Assembly: GCA_964556325.1 (NCBI GenBank)
Contig: CAZKVS010000002.1
Coordinates: 13,599-77,598, forward strand
DNA length: 64,000 nt
From: an uncultured Candidatus Saccharibacteria bacterium
Lineage (GTDB): Bacteria > Patescibacteriota > Doudnabacteria > UBA920
Direction of reading: 5' to 3'
A program made the translations under genes and the position numbers. Below are positions 9,975 through 51,510 of the stretch, in pieces (positions within the stretch are counted from its first letter, which is position 1; each line of letters opens with the position of its first letter). The notes below the pieces were generated by a model. That model had not been told where the DNA came from, made no database searches, and was given only the letters and a program-made list of their open reading frames with translations.

Positions 9975-10101
9975 GAATATAGTCTTAAATTATGAAGTAT
10001 GAATCAGGAATTAAGAATAACGAAAGAAATCATAACGGGTTGTTCGTAATTCAAAATTATTCTGGTGGGCGCGCTCAGCGTGCCCTTCACCACGCTAAGC
10101 G

Positions 10102-10178
10102 TGGTGGTCGCACCTGGACTCGAACCGGGGACCTCACCGATGTGAACGGTGCGCTCTAACCAACTGAGCTATGCGACC
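10102..10178 (-). tRNA. tRNA-Val (anticodon CAC), CCA encoded
   Basis: Reverse complement folds as a cloverleaf: acceptor GGTCGCA/TGCGACC, D-stem GCTC/GAGC, anticodon stem CACCG/CGGTG with loop TTCACAT, T-loop TTCGAGT (one C·A mismatch in the T-stem). Confidence 0.75.
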
Positions 10179-10447
10179 GATGTGATACAAAATATTCTTC
10201 TCTCATCAACGGATACCGACGATATACCAGACCAGCTGCTTGTCCCTCGTAGTTCCGACTCTTAGTCGGAACGTAGGGGGAAGCTAATTGTCCGCCACAC
10301 CTATAAAATCCTGCGTACGTATCCAGAAAGGAAGCAATCTACGCGGAGATTAAACCAACTATACCATCCTAAACCTAACTATGCAAGATAATTAAGCCCA
10401 AAAAAATCCGCACAAAAGTGCAGTTTTTTGCTATACTTACATACACT

Positions 10448-14403: not shown

Positions 14404-15498
14404 ATGAATCCCCTTGCCGATACTATATATTTACACGGTTTAAACCTCTTTCCTGCATTTGGCCCGAAACGGCTCGGTCTCTTGGGTAACTATTTTCAGA
14501 ACTACGCGGATGCCTTTGCCGCCCCTACCGCCGAGCTTATGGCGGCGGGTCTCGATGCAGAACTTGCCCAAAAATTTGTTCTATTCCGACAGACTATCAA
14601 CTTAAAAGTAGAAAACGAGAAACTACAAAACTTAGGTATACATCTGGTAAGCATCCAGGACCATACGTACCCACAATTACTGCTTGAGTGTAGCCTTCCT
14701 CCATCAATTCTCTACGTACGCGGAACAATACCGAACCCGGAGTGGGCCATTGTATCCGTGGTGGGCACGAGAAAGATTACCACCTACGGCATGAGTGTAA
14801 CCCCTCGCATACTCGGACCCCTGGTGGATGCAGGTATAGTTATTGCTTCTGGCCTGGCATATGGTGTTGACGCTCTCGCGCATAAACAGGCAGTAGAGAA
14901 AAATAAACCCACCATCGCCATACTCGGTGGAGGTATAGATGACAAAACTATATACCCCAAACACCATGTACTTCTTGCTCACGAAATAATGGCAACCGGA
15001 GGCTGTCTTATAAGCGAATACCCACCGGGAACTCCTCCGTTTAAACAACACTTTGTCGCACGCGACCGCATTATTTCTGGTATAAGCATAGGGACGCTTA
15101 TTATAGAGTGCAGCCTTAAAAGCGGTTCGCTCATTACTGCCCAATACGCGCTTGAACAAAACAGGCGTCTCTATGCAGTACCTGGTCCCATCTATGCCGA
15201 AGAGTCTCGCGGACCAAATAATTTAATAAAAATGGGCGCGAGTTTGGCAACTGAAGCTGCGGATATTTTAAACGATTTAAATATAAGTCCAAAACTCGAG
15301 GCAACCCTCCCCGCACAAGACTACACACCCACCGAACAAATAGTTCTTGCTATACTTACGTCTGAACCAATGACCGTAGATGCGATTATACAAAACTCAA
15401 ATGCGGATGCATCGGCCATTACAACCACGCTCACTTTTCTAGAAATGAAAGGCACCATTAAAAACGTTGGCGGCCAGCAGTACATTCGTGTTCGCTAA
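14404..15498 (+). CDS. dprA: DNA-processing protein DprA (Smf)
   Basis: Rossmann-like DprA core ('GTRKITTYG', 'GLAYGVDALAHK', 'ILGGGID') and C-terminal winged helix. Confidence 0.85.
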   Translation: MNPLADTIYLHGLNLFPAFGPKRLGLLGNYFQNYADAFAAPTAELMAAGLDAELAQKFVLFRQTINLKVENEKLQNLGIHLVSIQDHTYPQLLLECSLPPSILYVRGTIPNPEWAIVSVVGTRKITTYGMSVTPRILGPLVDAGIVIASGLAYGVDALAHKQAVEKNKPTIAILGGGIDDKTIYPKHHVLLAHEIMATGGCLISEYPPGTPPFKQHFVARDRIISGISIGTLIIECSLKSGSLITAQYALEQNRRLYAVPGPIYAEESRGPNNLIKMGASLATEAADILNDLNISPKLEATLPAQDYTPTEQIVLAILTSEPMTVDAIIQNSNADASAITTTLTFLEMKGTIKNVGGQQYIRVR

Positions 15499-23400: not shown

Positions 23401-23590
23401 GCTTTAATACCCCAAGCATTCGGATACAATTCCTCCGGTGTACACCGGAGGACCACTTTTTCGGCCCCCGCCACTATTTCATACTCCAAGTATTCGCATG
23501 AACTCTCCGGTGTAAAACCGGAGCCGTTCTTTTCGACCCCACTTTCCCCAAACCATAAAAAAGAACCTACTTGCGTAGATTCTTTTTTCA

Positions 23591-23678
23591 TGGTGGGTCC
23601 GGCGGGAGTCGAACCCGCGACCGTTGGCTTAAAGTCCGCCAGCTGGCGGATCAACCAACTGAGCTACAAGACAGGTCC
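23591..23678 (-). pseudogene. Aberrant tRNA-Lys-like copy: 44-nt 3' half identical to tRNA-Lys, anticodon-stem 5' strand replaced by palindrome TCCGCCAGCTGGCGGA
   Basis: 23591-23634 is identical to 24003-24046 (T-arm, acceptor 3' strand, CCA). The D-arm is similar. The 5' acceptor strand (GGACCTG) cannot pair with the 3' strand, and the anticodon-stem region is replaced by a tight hairpin. It is followed by a hairpin plus T-run on the minus strand. Confidence 0.4.
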
Positions 23679-23960
23679 AACCTTCCGCTTTAAGAAAACT
23701 CTCCCCTGATAACTTTTTAGAACTTTCTCCCTGTGCAATGCCTCGTGTCTGGTTTCAAACTCTTCCTTATAAACAAGCTTCCATGGGCCAGCATGCTTGT
23801 GGGTATAAGAACTCTTTTTATGGGGAAGTAAACTATTGTGGCGGGCTAAACGGACATCTAAATTATCGGTTTGCCCAATGTAGATATTGCCTGTTAGATT
23901 GGTAATGGCATAAACTATATACATAGCAACTCCTGATACTATCAGTGAATCAAGATGCAT
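23664..23960 (-). CDS. Small GIY-YIG nuclease-superfamily protein (YhbQ/UPF0213-like)
   Basis: 'YIVYAI...GNIYIGQTDNLDVRLARHN...WKLVYKEEFETRHEALHREKVLK' GIY-YIG core. The last codons (GPVL*) are encoded by the tRNA-like remnant. Likely start at MYIVY (about 23925). Confidence 0.65.
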   Translation of the reverse strand: MHLDSLIVSGVAMYIVYAITNLTGNIYIGQTDNLDVRLARHNSLLPHKKSSYTHKHAGPWKLVYKEEFETRHEALHREKVLKSYQGRVFLKRKVGPVL

Positions 23961-23974
23961 GCACTATGTCAAAT

Positions 23975-24000
23975 AAAAAATCTCCTACTCGGAGGAGATT
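23975..24000 (-). terminator. Terminator after tRNA-Lys (AATCTCCT-cgagt-AGGAGATT plus T-run on the minus strand)
   Basis: Perfect 8-bp hairpin followed by TTTTTTATTT in the minus orientation. Confidence 0.7.
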
Positions 24001-24002
24001 TG

Positions 24003-24078
24003 TGGTGGGTCCGGCGGGAGTCGAACCCGCGACCGTTGGCTTAAAAGGCCACTGCTCTACCAACTGAGCTACAGACCC
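24003..24078 (-). tRNA. tRNA-Lys (anticodon TTT), CCA encoded
   Basis: Cloverleaf from the reverse complement: acceptor GGGTCTG/CGGACCC, D-stem GCTC/GAGC, anticodon loop CTTTTAA, T-arm GCGGG-TTCGACT-CCCGC. Close to E. coli tRNA-Lys. Confidence 0.85.
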
Positions 24079-24113
24079 ATATTCAAATGGTTTAACTAAG
24101 TACACCGAGACTA

Positions 24114-24172
24114 TCTTGGTCGTTGGCATAAAAGTCCCGCTTAGCGGGATCTACCAACTGAGCTACAGACCC
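24114..24172 (-). pseudogene. tRNA-Lys 5'-half-like fragment with a hairpin (TCCCGCTTAGCGGGA) in place of the anticodon-stem 5' strand
   Basis: GGGTCTGTAGCTCAGTTGGTAGA is identical to the tRNA-Lys 5' part, followed by a hairpin, then CTTTTATGCCAACG. There is no T-arm. It lies directly upstream (in the minus sense) of the intact tRNA-Lys. Confidence 0.35.
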
Positions 24173-46745: not shown

Positions 46746-48443
46746 GTGAGTAACGCACGTACAACACTCAGATATTGGTTAAATCTTTCCTTGTATAGGA
46801 AAGTTTTTTCTTTCATGGCACCTTGGGAAAAGTGGCTCACGGTTGCTTTGCTAATAACTATAGTAGGAAGCTTGAGTTGGAGTGGCCTTGTTTTTTACAG
46901 GAGCCACACGAGACAAATACCAAGCCATGGCGGCATATTAAACCAGGGCGTCGTGGGTCAGCCCAGAACCATCAACCCCGTCCTTGCCACTACGCCGGCA
47001 GACCTGCTGCTAACCCGCGCAGTATTTAGCGGACTGTATACATACAACAATCAAGGCCAACCAATCTCCGACCTTGCCACAGACCTCCCCACCATTTCCA
47101 ATGACGGAAGAACCTATACTGTTACTCTCAAACCAAACCTCACCTGGCACGACGGCAAACCAGTCACGAGTAGTGATGTGGTATTTACTATTACCAAAAT
47201 TCAAGACCCTGCTATTAATAGCCCCCTACGCGGACTCTGGCTTTCCACCACGGTACAAGCCATAAACGACCAAACGATTATTTTTACAACCAAAGAAGAA
47301 AGCGGACCTTTTCTTCACAACCTCACCGTCGGACTCTTGCCAGAACATATATGGCACGGCGTAGCTGCGGAAAACTTTACCACCACCGGGCTCAATCTCA
47401 CACCGCTCGGAAACGGTCCCTATGCAGTCCGCCAAGTAGAGAACACCCCTAGTAAACGAGTAAGCAAAATCCTTCTTGATAGCTTTGCAAACTTCCCTCG
47501 TCCCCCATTTCTAGACGGGGTTACTGTTACGTTCTATGAAAGCCAAGACGAAGTAAATAAGGCTTTTTCCGGACAAGAAATAAATGCGCTTGGTGTATCC
47601 CTTACCGACAACCTTCCCGACACGCCCAGCAATCTGCAAACCAATACACGCATGAGCGTACCGCAGTATCAAGCTGTATTTCTGAACACCAAAAAAAGCA
47701 CCCTTGCCATTCCTCAAGTGCGAGAAGCACTCCTACTCAGCTTGAGCTCCGCGGATATTACGCAAGCTGCATGGCCGAACCACGCCACTGCCATAGGAGG
47801 TGTTCCCCTGGGAGAAAACGATTTTACCAATACCCAACCCACAACACCAGACATAGCAAAAGCAGACGAGTTACTCACCACCGCCGGCTGGAAAAAAACC
47901 ATAAGCGGCATTCGCACAAAAGGAAAAACAGAGCTCGCGATAAACTTAGTAACGCCTAACACCCCCGCGTTCACTACTGCAGCAGGCCTTATCCAAACAG
48001 CGTGGACTAACTTGGGTGTTAAGGTAACGGTCATTCCAGCCGAGACAAACGAACTCATTAGCACGTACGTTCGACCTCGTAACTTTGACGCACTCCTCTT
48101 TTCTGAAAAAAGCAACGCAGACGCAGATCCTTTTGCGTTTTGGCACTCGAGTCAAGTAAAGGATCCAGGGCTCAACGTGAGCGGCTTAGCTGTGCCTCAA
48201 GTAGACAAACTCATTACCGACGCACGCACAAACACCGATGAAACTACCCGAAAGGCGCTCTACGAACAGCTCACTGAATTACTTAGCACTCAACACGCAG
48301 CATTGTATTTAAACCAGTCGCTCTACATATACGTAACTGACCCGAGGTTCCATGGCATACAAGTGGAACGAATACCAGACCCCAGCTGGATACTCGCCCT
48401 TTCTCCAAGCTGGTACACCAAACTCACCCGTACGTGGAAATAA
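46746..48443 (+). CDS. ABC transporter substrate-binding protein, family 5 (peptide/nickel type), membrane-anchored, with no adjacent permease genes
   Basis: 'DGRTYTVTLKPNLTWHDGKPVTSSDVVFT' SBP_bac_5 hallmark. N-terminal TM anchor. GTG start at 46746, or ATG at about 46815. Confidence 0.8.
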   Translation: MSNARTTLRYWLNLSLYRKVFSFMAPWEKWLTVALLITIVGSLSWSGLVFYRSHTRQIPSHGGILNQGVVGQPRTINPVLATTPADLLLTRAVFSGLYTYNNQGQPISDLATDLPTISNDGRTYTVTLKPNLTWHDGKPVTSSDVVFTITKIQDPAINSPLRGLWLSTTVQAINDQTIIFTTKEESGPFLHNLTVGLLPEHIWHGVAAENFTTTGLNLTPLGNGPYAVRQVENTPSKRVSKILLDSFANFPRPPFLDGVTVTFYESQDEVNKAFSGQEINALGVSLTDNLPDTPSNLQTNTRMSVPQYQAVFLNTKKSTLAIPQVREALLLSLSSADITQAAWPNHATAIGGVPLGENDFTNTQPTTPDIAKADELLTTAGWKKTISGIRTKGKTELAINLVTPNTPAFTTAAGLIQTAWTNLGVKVTVIPAETNELISTYVRPRNFDALLFSEKSNADADPFAFWHSSQVKDPGLNVSGLAVPQVDKLITDARTNTDETTRKALYEQLTELLSTQHAALYLNQSLYIYVTDPRFHGIQVERIPDPSWILALSPSWYTKLTRTWK

Positions 48444-48632
48444 GCGATGCGCAGAAGTTGGAATTATGAATAATGAAGTATGGATAAGAGAAAAACATTA
48501 GCGTTATGAGCACTGCAGAGAAGCCATATATCAATCGCGAGCCCGTTACTTGGCAGGAAACATTGTGTTGAGTATAATTGATTAGTTCTATATTGCTCGA
48601 TTCATGATTCCTGATTCATGATTCTAGTCCCT

Positions 48633-48747
48633 GCCCAAGTGGTGAAATGGTATACACGCCCCGCCGAGGCGGGATGGGAGCAATCCCGTGGGAGTTTCCG
48701 CCTGAGGCGGACCCGCCTCAGGCGAGCGAGCTTTACAAATTATATTT
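48633..48747 (+). other. 26-nt duplicate of the tRNA-Leu 5' end followed by an 89-nt GC-rich structured element
   Basis: 48633-48658 is identical to 48748-48773. This is followed by hairpins CCGCC-GAG-GCGG, GGGA-GCAA-TCCC and a perfect 9-bp stem GCCTGAGGC-GGACCC-GCCTCAGGC. It stands out as GC-rich against the AT-rich surroundings. Confidence 0.6.
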
Positions 48748-48833
48748 GCCCAAGTGGTGAAATGGTATACACGTACGCTTCAGATGCGTATGACCGCAAG
48801 GTCGTGGAGGTTCGAGTCCTCTCTTGGGCACCA
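48748..48833 (+). tRNA. tRNA-Leu (anticodon CAG), type II with a long variable arm, CCA encoded
   Basis: Acceptor GCCCAAG/CTTGGGC, anticodon stem TACGC/GCGTA with loop TTCAGAT, variable arm GACC-GCAA-GGTC, T-loop TTCGAGT. Confidence 0.85.
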
Positions 48834-48876
48834 GAAAGCTACAGTCATTATATGACCGTAGCTTTCTGATTTTTTA
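48834..48876 (+). terminator. Terminator after tRNA-Leu (GAAAGCTAC-N15-GTAGCTTTC plus TTTTTT)
   Basis: 9-bp hairpin followed by a T-run. Confidence 0.75.
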
Positions 48877-49050
48877 GAGGACGAGAAAAGGAGGGGTTTC
48901 GCGCTTTGGCGAAATTTGTTACGACCATTTGGAGTAACAAAAGCGGCAGGGGTCGACACGAGCTTGAATGGAAGTGAATTCCATTCATCGCGAATCCTGT
49001 AGCGTTATACGACGAGGCCGTTTCGGGTGAGGAGTATAGCGGGAAGTGAC

Positions 49051-49071
49051 CGAGTCCTCTCTTGGGCACCA
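49051..49071 (+). repeat. 21-bp direct repeat of the tRNA-Leu 3' end (CGAGTCCTCTCTTGGGCACCA), att-like scar
   Basis: Identical to 48813-48833. About 215 bp separate the two copies. Confidence 0.85.
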
Positions 49072-49168
49072 TACAAAACCACAAAAATCGCCAACAGTTT
49101 TGTATATCCAACTATATGTTAAACCGGCTTAGTCTAGTCATATATTGCTCAAAAAGAAGCAAAATGCG

Positions 49169-49197
49169 TTGACAAATAGCCCCAACTCAGCTATAGT
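49169..49197 (+). promoter_or_regulatory. Sigma70-like promoter TTGACA-N17-TATAGT in the long non-coding region upstream of rnj
   Basis: TTGACAaatagccccaactcagcTATAGT. It would give a 5' leader of about 440 nt before the RNase J start. Confidence 0.45.
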
Positions 49198-49639
49198 ATA
49201 AGCACCTTAGTTTTCTCGTGAAATAAAAACACCAGTTAACAGATCAGTTCTAGAAAGTCTTTTTTATTTTTGATTTGTTAATTGTGCCTCCACTATACGT
49301 GGGGAAGATGCCTGCTCGGTGCGGCTGTATAAGCCTACCAATGCGGACATATGTATTTTTTCTTTAGATCTAATTTTACATTTGATCTTTTGCACGATTT
49401 AACAACGAAATACATTAGTATTTCACAATAACTGTAAGGGGCTTTGTTGCCACCACTGAAATCCGGGAACACATATGTTTTAGACGGCACGTCAGAATTA
49501 GACAACACTCCCCTTATAGTTACAGGCCTATAATAAAGACTTGGCTATATATAAGCTCTTCAATGCCGCGTACGCATGTATAATTGCGTGAGCGCTTGTA
49601 AACTTTGTATATATACAAGTCATAATCTTAATTTTAGTA

Positions 49640-51510
49640 TGATAAAACGCAATCCTATGCCACCAAGTAATTCTCGCCCTAATGGCCCTAGGCCTACCGG
49701 TAACAATCGACGCCAGCCATTTCCGCTGAAGCCAGTTTCCTCCGACCACTTTATAACCCCAGAACCAAGCACAGTTCGCATGAGTTCCGGAAGCGGCGCG
49801 CCAGCAGGCGCTGTTGCTACGAGCAAACACACGGTTAGTCGTACCACACTTCGCGTTATCCCTTTAGGAGGCGTAGAAGAAGTTGGTGTGAACTGTACCG
49901 CATTTGAATACGGTGACGATATTATTGTAGTCGACATGGGTTTGGCGTTTCCAGATGAAACCATGCCGGGTATAGACTATATTATTCCCGACACCAAATA
50001 TTTAGAGGACAACAAGCATAAAATTCGTGGCATATTTATTACCCACGCCCACTTAGACCACATTGGCGCCCTTCCGTACGTATTGGCCAAGCTGGGTGAT
50101 CCCCCAATTTACACCATGCCACTTTCGGCCGGGCTTATTCGCAAGCGTATGGAAGAGTTCAATATGGTGAACCGCACCCGTATAAACGCCGTCACCAAAG
50201 ACGACGTAGTACCTCTCGGTGCGTTTCGAGTGGAGTTCTTCCGCCTTAACCATAACATCCCTGACTGTATTGGTATGCGCATTCAAACACCTGTTGGGAA
50301 CGTCTTGTACGCGACTGATTGGAAGTTCGACCATACCCCTACTGATCAGCGGCCAACTGAGTTTGAAAAAATTGCTCGTTTTGGCGGCGAAGGCATACTT
50401 TTATTGCTTTCCGACTCAACTAATGCAGCTAAGCCAGGTTACTGTGTTTCGGAAACTGAATTAGCAAAGAACATTGACCGCATTTTCGCGGATTCGAAGG
50501 GGCGCATAATTTTTGCCACCTTCTCTCAGCTCATTTCTCGTATACAGTCCGTCTGTGACTCTGCCCAAAAGCATAATCGCAAGATTATTGTAACTGGTCG
50601 TTCTATGGTTAACGCCATTGAAATTGCTTTGTCCATGGGCTACCTACGAATTGAACCAAAAATATTTATCAAATCAGAACAAGCTCGCAAGTTTCCTGAT
50701 AACCAAATAGTTGTACTTACTACCGGCGCTCAAGGCGAAGAAGCTTCGGCTCTTGCCCGTATGGCTCGTGGTGAACATAAAATTATCCGCGTAAAACCAG
50801 GTGACACGGTAGTAGTATCGGCCTCCCCTATTCCGGGCAATGAACGGTCCGTAGTAAGCGTGTTAGACAACCTCACCCGCGCGGGTGCAGAAGTTATTTA
50901 CAGTAAACTGTTAGATATTCACTCTTCCGGGCACGCCCAACAGGAAGAGCTCAAGCTTATGTTCGGCCTAACCAAACCCAAGTATTTTGTTCCTATTCAT
51001 GGCGAGCACCACATGCTTGTCTCACACAGTAAGCTCGCACAGACTGTGGGTATTCCTGCGCAAAATTGTTTTGTATTGGACAATGGAAGCATTTTAGAAT
51101 TTAACTCGGCAGGTGATGCAAAGCTCAGCGACGCCAAAGTTGATGCCGGCTACATTTTTGTAGACGGGCTCGGTGTAGGTGACGTAGGTGAAGTAGTGCT
51201 TCGAGATCGCCAGGTTATGTCTACCGACGGTATGTTTGTTATTATTGTTGCTCTTGAGCACAAGACTGGCAAACTTATTAACCAACCGGATATTATCTCT
51301 CGTGGTTTCATTTACATGAAAGGCAATGAAGATATTATTCGTGAAGTAAAGCATGAAGTCCGGAAGATTTGCGAAAACAAGTCTAACCACAAGCAGACTG
51401 AGCCTAACTACGCATTCCTCCGCCAGGTCATTCGTGACCAAGTCGGTGAATACCTGTTTCAAAAAACAAACCGTCGTCCAATGGTACTGCCTGTTGTAAC
51501 GGAAGTATAA
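49640..51510 (+). CDS. rnj: Ribonuclease J (metallo-beta-lactamase / beta-CASP) with a low-complexity N-terminal extension of about 80 aa
   Basis: 'LRVIPLGGVEEVGVNCTAFEY' RNase J start motif, 'HAHLDHIGALPY' MBL His motif, beta-CASP and C-terminal domain. Start placed at MIKRNPMPP. Confidence 0.85.

Follow-up and report, generated by a model that had tools for sequence, protein, structure and literature searches.

We analyzed a locus at which a tRNA-Leu(CAG) gene precedes rnj, the gene for RNase J, in a 64,000-nucleotide stretch of DNA (the window; GenBank contig CAZKVS010000002.1, positions 13,599 to 77,598) from an uncultured Candidatus Saccharibacteria bacterium assigned by GTDB to Doudnabacteria. 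On balance, we favor the view that this locus carries the scars of tRNA-targeting "disrupt-and-replace" cassettes. The working tRNA-Leu gene would then be a replacement that lies inside an older, disrupted copy, and the leader of rnj would be a separate element.

A tRNA-Leu gene in pieces around the working copy

The functional tRNA-Leu(CAG) gene (Table 1), which scores 54.7 bits against the Rfam tRNA model, is flanked by direct repeats of both its ends, each 100% identical. The 5' repeat (48632-48658 = 48747-48773) is 27 nt long and consists of 26 tRNA nucleotides plus one upstream T, and the 3' repeat (48813-48833 = 49051-49071) covers 21 nt from the T-loop to the CCA. Since any repeated 14-mer occurred in only 5 of 2,000 mononucleotide shuffles of 48300-49800, the repeats are far beyond chance. 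An initial annotation of this DNA had listed the gene with both duplicates, a GC-rich cassette with hairpins, a terminator and a GAATGGAA/TTCCATTC hairpin (48966-48986), and all of these are present. The terminator-like hairpin has 17-nt arms (48832-48848 / 48852-48868) that are 94% complementary and are followed by ATTTTTT; a simple terminator scan made no call at 48832-48868. The cassette contains a GNRA-capped stem, GGGA-GCAA-TCCC (48677-48688), and perfect inverted arms of 12 nt each (48699-48710 / 48713-48724). Overall, the tRNA-Leu region is strongly structured (z = -6.4).

For comparison, 79 related loci (L001-L079) were retrieved with the rnj protein from Patescibacteria/Doudnabacteria-like genomes, at 63-78% identity. 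When k-mers from all tRNA-Leu alleles were used together with these loci, 48674-48691 matched positions 44-61 of other tRNA-Leu alleles. This middle piece (piece 2 in Table 1), whose variable arm is the GNRA-capped stem, aligns with tRNA-Leu alleles or fragments in L003, L013, L026, L039, L074 and L030. Because it comprises the variable arm and the 5' strand of the T-stem, 48633-48696 reads as a tRNA-Leu gene in three parts, and we take the flanking repeats to be what is left of both ends of an earlier, broken copy of this tRNA-Leu gene. Neither the 5' duplicate nor the GC-rich cassette is an independent small RNA or a second integration scar: together they represent the 5' part, variable arm and T-stem of the older gene, with a hairpin in place of the anticodon arm. 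The T-loop of this outer gene is split by 354 bp (48697-49050), which hold the palindromic hairpin H, the working tRNA with its terminator, and a structured element that we call module X. The arrangement between H and the working gene is shared with L030 (5350-5409). Further tRNA-Leu-like k-mers at 14659-14772 were rejected as chance matches within a coding region.

An assembly artefact was also considered and rejected, because contigs from other samples contain both the 3' fragment and the final part of module X, and because mis-assembly cannot make hairpin substitutions. Among four contigs of the same species with identical rnj (L200-L203, from other samples in Logan), three begin 13-19 nt upstream of the 3' fragment, and the start of the fourth, at 49254, falls inside the rnj leader. 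Assemblies break within 49032-49254, possibly owing to strain heterogeneity.

Upstream of the 5' duplicate lies a second strong promoter-like site, which is absent from the initial annotation (Table 1). This site probably drives the whole tRNA transcription unit. The working tRNA would thus probably be transcribed from the promoter of the old gene, through a structured leader of approximately 160 nt, and be released by RNase P. A 16-nt near-repeat (48583-48598 / 49135-49150; TAGTTCTATATTGCTC / TAGTCATATATTGCTC, 88%) occurs just after this promoter and just before the rnj promoter, and may stem from a duplicated flank or from chance.

Module X fills the space between the terminator and the 3' piece. 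It starts with AGAGGACGAG, which is antisense to the T-loop and 3' T-stem of the neighboring tRNA, and continues with hairpins P1 (48897-48914) and P2 (48915-48941), AGCGGCAGGGGTCG, a private 41-nt insert that includes the GAATGGAA hairpin, and the end TAGCGGGAAGTGAC. The element is conserved in L015 and L042 (nhmmer E ~1e-30), lineages whose RNase J is only ~70% identical, and weakly after a pseudo-copy of tRNA-Lys in the window (E ~1e-4). Its antisense segment follows the local tRNA allele, with 12 of 12 positions matching in L015, 11 of 12 in L042, 10 of 12 in the window's Leu copy and 9 of 10 in the window's Lys copy. In the window and in L015, module X ends at the sense copy that runs from the T-loop to the CCA, and the predicted fold closes the module with AGAGGAC/GUCCUCU (z = -3.4). 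Two of its hairpins have compensatory changes in all four copies, and an 11-nt loop is conserved; since there are four copies and the MAFFT alignment puts P1 out of register by 1 nt, we describe this covariation qualitatively. Module X has no Rfam match and represents a candidate structured element. In the bolder version of our model discussed below, it may be a structured RNA cargo, and its 5' end, which is complementary to the T-arm of the target, could serve as a guide.

Table 1. Features of the tRNA-Leu/rnj region and of the tRNA-Lys locus, with further copies of module X. Positions are those of the window unless a related locus is named.
Feature	Position	Strand	Basis or remark
Promoter-like TTGGCA-N17-TATAAT upstream of outer tRNA gene	48550..48578	+	11/12 matches
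Outer tRNA-Leu piece 1: positions 1-26 (acceptor 5' strand and D-arm)	48633..48658	+	identical to functional gene
GC hairpin CCCGCC-GA-GGCGGG at anticodon-arm place of outer gene	48660..48673	+	same swap in L003, L004, L039, L074, L079
Outer tRNA-Leu piece 2: variable arm, 5' T-stem, TT of T-loop	48675..48696	+	allele of GGGAGCAATCCC type, not that of functional gene
Palindromic hairpin H, TCCGCCTGAGGCGGA	48697..48711	+	interrupts T-loop of outer gene
Second arm CCCGCCTCAGGCG and AT-rich spacer before functional tRNA	48712..48747	+	12-bp palindrome with 48699-48710
Functional tRNA-Leu(CAG), inner and presumed replacement copy, CCA encoded	48748..48833	+	ARAGORN, Rfam
Terminator-like hairpin (17-bp stem) and T-run	48832..48875	+	inverted repeats; position conserved in L015, L042
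Module X, conserved structured element, ~175 nt, between terminator and 3' piece	48876..49050	+	
Outer tRNA-Leu piece 3: T-loop C56 to CCA	49051..49071	+	identical to functional gene
rnj promoter TTGACA-N17-TATAGT	49169..49197	+	11/12 matches; 442 nt before ATG 49639
Conserved leader box TTTGTTAATTG	49274..49284	+	~70 nt after predicted transcription start
Variable leader hairpin CTCCAC-TATAC-GTGGGG	49288..49304	+	
Conserved covarying leader hairpin around GCGGC-TGTATAA-GCC	49318..49339	+	
GCACGATTTAACAA, complementary to box region 49274-49287	49392..49405	+	reading
rnj (RNase J), low-complexity N-terminal extension of ~85 aa	49639..51510	+	Pfam
tRNA-Lys(UUU), intact	24003-24078	minus	within locus 23590-24170
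GIY-YIG open reading frame, 86 aa, between intact tRNA-Lys and downstream copy	23664-23924	minus	Pfam 3e-16
Other module X copy, window	23458-23545	minus	downstream of tRNA terminator
Other module X copies, L015	4802-4943, 5125-5186		downstream of tRNA terminators
Other module X copy, L042	4545-4683		downstream of tRNA terminator

Nested tRNA copies in relatives and hairpin-bearing copies near GIY-YIG genes

A tRNA-Leu(CAG) gene is found near rnj in 56 of the 79 related loci. Counting the window, fragments of tRNA-Leu accompany the intact gene in 22 of 57 loci: a 5' piece upstream in 13, a 3' piece downstream in approximately 19, and both in 10. The outer pieces usually belong to another allele than the intact gene. 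Their breakpoints recur, and are located in the D-loop, at its end (20/21), in the anticodon arm or loop, and in the T-loop. Particular junctions recur as well. An inverted pair, with TT(C/T)A-CCCCGCAC before and GTGCGGGG after the intact tRNA, embraces the inner gene in L009, L017, L022, L023, L030 and L034, and a related form of the CCCCGCAC/GTGCGGGG junction replaces the anticodon arm in L013 and L026. TCCGCC...GGCGGA-CAGG is found repeatedly as a junction in the anticodon loop, and solo hairpins of the form CCCGCC-loop-GGCGGG substitute for the anticodon arm both in the window and in the related loci listed with that hairpin in Table 1. L004 is a triple nest with three layers. L015 carries a duplicate from the T-loop to the CCA like that of the window, composed of its own allele and 199 nt apart; the initial annotation had named such duplicates in relatives as evidence against integration scars, and in this respect its own counter-argument is partly borne out.

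Every outer copy that was inspected is defective through mismatches, truncations, or loss of G19 or the CCA. The copies of the window, L003, L013 and L026 lack the anticodon arm; those of L017 and L022 are truncated, those of L023 and L034 have acceptor mismatches, and that of L009 has lost both G19 and the CCA. We therefore regard the outer copies as pseudogenes and not as split functional tRNAs.

Alleles at this locus turn over among close relatives. Within a clade whose RNase J cores are 84-97% identical, the intact alleles differ strongly (their acceptor stems include GGGCGAG, GCTCGAG, GCCGCGG, GCCCAGG and GGGCACG), and nested loci are interleaved with clean ones. Different intact alleles are present in genomes whose RNase J is 92-97% identical, and what is intact in one genome can be a wreck in its sister. 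For example, GCCGCGG is nested in GCCCAGG in L022, and in L025 and L044, GCCCAGG is intact and GCCGCGG survives as a 3' remnant. Similarly, the GGGCACG allele is the inner one in L030 and L034 and the outer one in L013. These swaps between sisters show repeated, recent replacement by incoming tRNA-Leu copies. Together, the interleaved loci and swapped alleles amount to a presence/absence polymorphism in close relatives with co-conversion of flanks, as would be anticipated of a homing cassette.

The hairpins connect the tRNA-Leu locus to others. TCCGCC-N3-30-GGCGGA occurs twice in the window versus 0.02 occurrences expected, and the second copy is located beside tRNA-Lys(UUU). On the minus strand, this locus consists of a truncated tRNA-Lys copy, the intact gene, a terminator, an open reading frame (ORF) for a GIY-YIG protein, and a second copy that is full length. 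In both copies positions 24-31 are replaced, by TCCCGCTAAGCGGGA in the truncated upstream copy and by the palindrome TCCGCCAGCTGGCGGA (23635-23650) in the downstream one. The tRNA-Val gene has flanks comparable to those of tRNA-Lys. Upstream of tRNA-Val(CAC) (10059-10283, minus strand), a hairpin CCCCCTACG...CGAGGGA-CAAG is contained in a tRNA-Leu-like 5' remnant (GTGGCGGA...CTGGT..GGTATA), and the downstream sequence ...GCGCGCCCACCA equals the 3' end of another tRNA.

When metagenomes were scanned with the window's GIY-YIG protein, 80 loci were found (39-64% identical). An intact tRNA gene lies within 300 nt in 51 of them (64%), always on the same strand; by an estimate from typical tRNA density, approximately 3% would be expected. 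The linked tRNAs include Lys, Asn, Met, Arg, Gln, Val, Ala, Thr, Glu and Ser types. Partial copies of the linked tRNA are present in approximately 40 loci, mostly with the structure "1-23 + 15-18-nt hairpin + 32-...", and positions 24-31 are replaced alike in independent tRNA-Lys and tRNA-Asn copies on unrelated contigs. Often the inserted hairpin is either TCCGCCAGCTGGCGGA, a perfect palindrome of 16 nt that is identical between copies, or the TCCGCCTGAGGCGGA of the window; the identical 15-mer of hairpin H is found inside tRNA-Asn pseudo-copies near GIY-YIG genes in L221, L224, L248 and L270. In 260 kb of GIY-YIG loci, exact TCCGCC-N3-4-GGCGGA has 34 instances, nearly all of which are inside tRNA pseudo-copies. 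Two orders recur, namely intact tRNA / GIY-YIG / disrupted copy and disrupted copy / GIY-YIG / intact tRNA, and such copies form tandem arrays in L208, L230, L248 and L282. In L001-L079 and the window, the density of H-type hairpins within 350 nt of a tRNA gene is 10.6 times that found elsewhere (12 near tRNAs, 23 far).

Hairpin-bearing pseudo-tRNAs are mis-called as real genes and can contaminate tRNA annotation. ARAGORN calls one such pseudo-tRNA-Asn a tRNA-Ser(cga) (L282, 2397-2488), and it calls a 96-nt "tRNA-Thr" that overlaps the end of a GIY-YIG ORF (L249, 389-484).

Proposed disrupt-and-replace cassettes and competing explanations

Both orders of GIY-YIG gene and tRNA fit a single crossover between a chromosomal tRNA and an element-borne pseudo-tRNA, on either side of the hairpin, and the exact repeats in the window fit tracts of identity. 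We therefore propose small, non-autonomous cassettes that would integrate into tRNA genes and whose tRNA-homologous arms would be interrupted by a palindromic hairpin. Such cassettes would enter a resident single-copy tRNA gene by recombination within short identical tRNA tracts, which in the window would be the 26-27 nt of the 5' side and the 21 nt of the 3' side. In each event, one intact gene would rescue the essential function, and one disrupted copy would be left to decay; repeated events would produce Russian-doll nests and rapid turnover of alleles. Under this model, the window's tRNA-Leu locus would be a nuclease-less scar of at least two such events, and the foreign variable arm of piece 2 would fit a 3' part derived from the element.

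Integration would probably be stimulated by a free-standing nuclease that cuts tRNA genes, in the manner of phage T4 SegB, and be fed by DNA uptake. SegB is a free-standing GIY-YIG endonuclease encoded in a tRNA cluster; its site holds a conserved T-stem-loop motif of tRNA genes, and it promotes its own inheritance along with that of the tRNA genes around it (PMC2330249). Here too, a GIY-YIG gene is located among tRNA genes, and the old tRNA-Leu of the window is broken exactly in the T-loop, the motif of the SegB site. However, SegB is a larger protein of a phage, whereas the protein encoded in these chromosomes of the candidate phyla radiation (CPR) has a single domain of 86 aa, and the window's tRNA-Leu locus has no nuclease gene. 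Also, disrupted targets with palindromic hairpins, tandem arrays and nested tRNAs are not described for SegB. Our literature search found no paper on hairpin-disrupted tRNA copies linked to GIY-YIG genes. Selfish DNA of this kind that is associated with tRNA genes is apparently both widespread and undescribed.

A bolder version of this idea, which we put forward tentatively, is that undescribed selfish "home-and-rescue" drives continuously attack the tRNA genes of CPR/Patescibacteria. Each cassette would kill a single essential tRNA gene and deliver a replacement, with or without a minimal GIY-YIG gene, and the outcome would be nested tRNAs, tandem arrays of pseudo-tRNAs and fast allele turnover between sister species. 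If the cassette reading is correct, single-copy essential tRNA genes in reduced genomes are battlegrounds, killed and replaced time and again by selfish DNA, rather than stable housekeeping loci, which would account for the very different tRNA-Leu alleles of close relatives. The cassettes would also be a natural analogue of synthetic "cleave-and-rescue" drives, and would provide a biologic role for the very common, uncharacterized single-domain GIY-YIG (UPF0213-like) proteins.

Several observations weigh against cassettes as the explanation. There is no nuclease gene at the window's tRNA-Leu, and among the 79 related loci, only L003 has one, of the HNH_5 family. Homologues of this HNH_5 gene (83-59% identical) are found in varied contexts, usually after an unknown ORF; two of five contexts are downstream of tRNA-Ser, and the others have no tRNA nearby. 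Its candidacy as a homing enzyme specific for tRNA-Leu was rejected on these grounds, and it is probably cargo. The GIY-YIG protein consists of a single UPF0213-like domain of 86 aa and has no DNA-binding domain, so that site-specific cleavage by it is not obvious. At each GIY-YIG gene, the neighboring intact tRNA does not differ in sequence from the disrupted copy, and simple homing logic based on a resistant allele therefore does not explain self-immunity. Some H-type hairpins are located outside tRNA contexts. No circular or free form of a cassette was seen; a search of viral contigs for the cassette end CACCCCGCACCATT yielded only 14-mer matches attributable to chance, none of them with an inverted partner. 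In the window, the outer gene matches the inner one at 100% in its end pieces and differs from it in its middle piece, a pattern that requires recombination within the tRNA or gene conversion. Finally, an integrase would likewise leave a 3' copy that begins in the T-loop.

This last point leads to classical integrase islands, the explanation given in the initial annotation, in which the 21-bp repeat was an attL/attR pair around a largely deleted island. On this account, elements entered the tRNA gene, at the T-loop in the case of the 3' copy, and then were almost entirely deleted, leaving attachment sites and short remnants. We judge this quite unlikely. Part of the attL/attR claim stands: foreign DNA has been inserted at a tRNA gene, the insert is bounded by a 3' tRNA repeat, and the repeat starts in the T-loop and extends to the CCA, a classical crossover position for integration in tRNA genes, as reportedly described by Williams in 2002. 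Elements of tyrosine integrases use the anticodon loop, T-loop or 3' end of tRNAs and leave the tRNA functional, and the 3' fragments of relatives likewise start at the anticodon loop, variable arm or T-loop. The gap between tRNA-Leu and rnj contains inserted genes in some relatives and is thus a hot spot for foreign genes. However, no recombinase was detected in a Pfam scan of ORFs from 42.7 to 54 kb (~5 kb around the locus), and no integrase among the inserted ORFs tested in L003, L008, L031, L042, L053, L057, L065, L066, L069 and L079; apart from the HNH_5 gene of L003, those tested from the tRNA-Leu/rnj gap are either ordinary genes or unknown ones. Integration at a 3' end also gives neither the 5' pieces found upstream in 13 loci nor the nesting on both sides in 10, and it leaves no working tRNA inside an old one whose arms have been replaced by conserved hairpins. 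Instead of a random remnant, the 217 bp between the 3' copies contain the 175-nt conserved module, which recurs in lineages with ~70% identical RNase J. Moreover, in the window and L015 both repeat copies match the local allele, and the repeats are the ends of the old gene; the largely deleted island is not supported. Modules of an unknown ORF plus HNH_5 after tRNA-Ser, with a 15-nt duplicate of the 3' end in L285 and L286, count in favor of islands. The regions concerned are 1404-1623 in L285, 1352-1623 in L286 and 1461-1548 in L291; the 15-nt copy is direct in L285, and in L286 the tRNA terminator precedes first an inverted partial copy and next the direct copy of the tRNA 3' end, an order that echoes the layout of module X.

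It is also conceivable, though we consider it unlikely, that there is no dedicated cassette. Local duplication plus horizontal replacement by homologous recombination after DNA uptake would then generate the nests, the hairpins would be an independent family of palindromic repeats resembling repetitive extragenic palindromic (REP) sequences or miniature inverted-repeat transposable elements (MITEs) and would accumulate in dead tRNA copies, where insertions are neutral, and GIY-YIG genes would hitch-hike on tRNA promoters. In favor of this, the shortest length that RecA recombination needs is close to that of the repeats (21-27 nt), every GIY-YIG ORF runs in the same direction as its tRNA, and one pseudo-copy can contain several hairpins. 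H-type hairpins, a short palindromic unit at many sites, are found away from tRNAs as well: solo TCCGCCAGCTGGCGGA palindromes outside a tRNA context in L016 (1071) and L044 (291) have TACTAAT on both sides, which may be a 7-bp target duplication and would hint that the 16-nt palindrome is itself mobile. REP sequences, the bacterial interspersed mosaic elements (BIMEs) that they form, and Rickettsia palindromic elements are likewise short GC-rich palindromic hairpins that are repeated across genomes and can sit inside genes. However, the units described here measure 14-18 nt, are concentrated approximately ten-fold in tRNA pseudo-copies where they replace defined tRNA segments, and are associated with GIY-YIG genes rather than with REP-associated tyrosine (RAYT, HUH) transposases, for which no search was made. 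Neutral hairpins and hitch-hiking genes would not readily explain why the same segment (24-31) is replaced in independent tRNA-Lys and tRNA-Asn copies, why 64% of GIY-YIG homologues are linked to tRNAs, or why cassette ends recur around inner tRNAs. Highly improbable, by comparison, is that the outer pieces form a functional interrupted or split tRNA, or a tRNA-like RNA, with intron-like inserts and GC-rich stalks that join the halves. Some inserts in loops do have pairing ends (CCCCGCACCATTTT/AAAATGGTGCGGGG in L009 and L030) that resemble the complementary leaders of archaeal split tRNAs (PMC3978253, PMC10714607), and the strong predicted structure of the region would suit such an RNA. Archaeal split, permuted and multi-intron tRNAs share with these loci genes in pieces, GC-rich complementary flanks, non-canonical interruption sites and a proposed link to mobile elements (PMC3978253, PMC4090602, PMC10714607). 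In these bacteria, however, the pieces are defective pseudogenes around an intact tRNA-Leu(CAG), which is always present, and no bulge-helix-bulge was seen at the junctions by inspection. A functional split or intron-containing tRNA was rejected because the outer copies lack the anticodon arm, are truncated or are mismatched.

The rnj leader

RNase J was identified by Pfam (RNase_J_b_CASP, 1e-46; RNase_J_C, 1e-29). The initial annotation had inferred a long regulatory leader or small RNA from a good promoter ahead of rnj and from the lack of ORFs, and these observations hold: the promoter matches the consensus at 11 of 12 positions (Table 1), and 48444-49527 is longer than any other part of the window that lacks an open frame of 100 aa or more. 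The promoter is kept in the four closest relatives, including L002, L003 and L004. We take 49204-49638, approximately 435 nt, to be the 5' leader of rnj and to be unrelated to the tRNA scars.

The leader has a conserved architecture. A box, TTTG(T/C/G)TAATTG (the TTTGNTAATTG box), is located upstream of rnj in 53 of 78 loci, approximately 48 of which are in good register. It is followed by a variable hairpin and then by a conserved hairpin, ..GG(T/C)CGGC-N5-7-A(A/G)GCCAC... The distance from box to ATG is usually 135-215 nt and is 365 nt in the window. In an alignment of 40 sequences, 89.8% of cells in the conserved hairpin are paired, versus 76.0% when shuffled (0 of 500 shuffles reach the observed value) and 35-51% when partners are slid, and 9 of its 11 pairs have double changes. 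The variable hairpin occupies the same place as CCCGCC-AGCT-GGCGGG in L004 and CCCAT...GTGGG in L003. The form in L004 (892-907), CCCGCCAGCTGGCGGG, is a palindrome of the type found in place of tRNA arms. Judged by complementarity, GCACGATTTAACAA and the box region could form a long-range closing helix. The Rfam scan that had been suggested found only tRNA in the window and in 10 related loci, with nothing credible at E <=10 in 48400-49750.

Most likely, by analogy, this leader provides feedback control of RNase J synthesis. The 5' untranslated region (UTR) of E. coli rne is autoregulatory, and the rnj leader resembles it in having a long 5' UTR, a conserved structured element and a strong promoter. 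The likeness extends to the leaders of rnj in H. pylori, for which feedback control via the 5' UTR has been reported (PMC5874925), and of rny in B. subtilis (PMC10303841). However, the leader has no sequence or Rfam relation to these autoregulatory RNase leaders, and its box and GGYCGGC..AAGCCAC hairpin are specific to this CPR group. The motif is thus a candidate cis-regulatory RNA in a phylum with almost no known gene regulation. Downstream of it, the N-terminal extension of RNase J (49639-49890) is rich in Pro, Arg and Ser and varies in length, such that the matches of relatives start anywhere from residue 1 to approximately residue 67.

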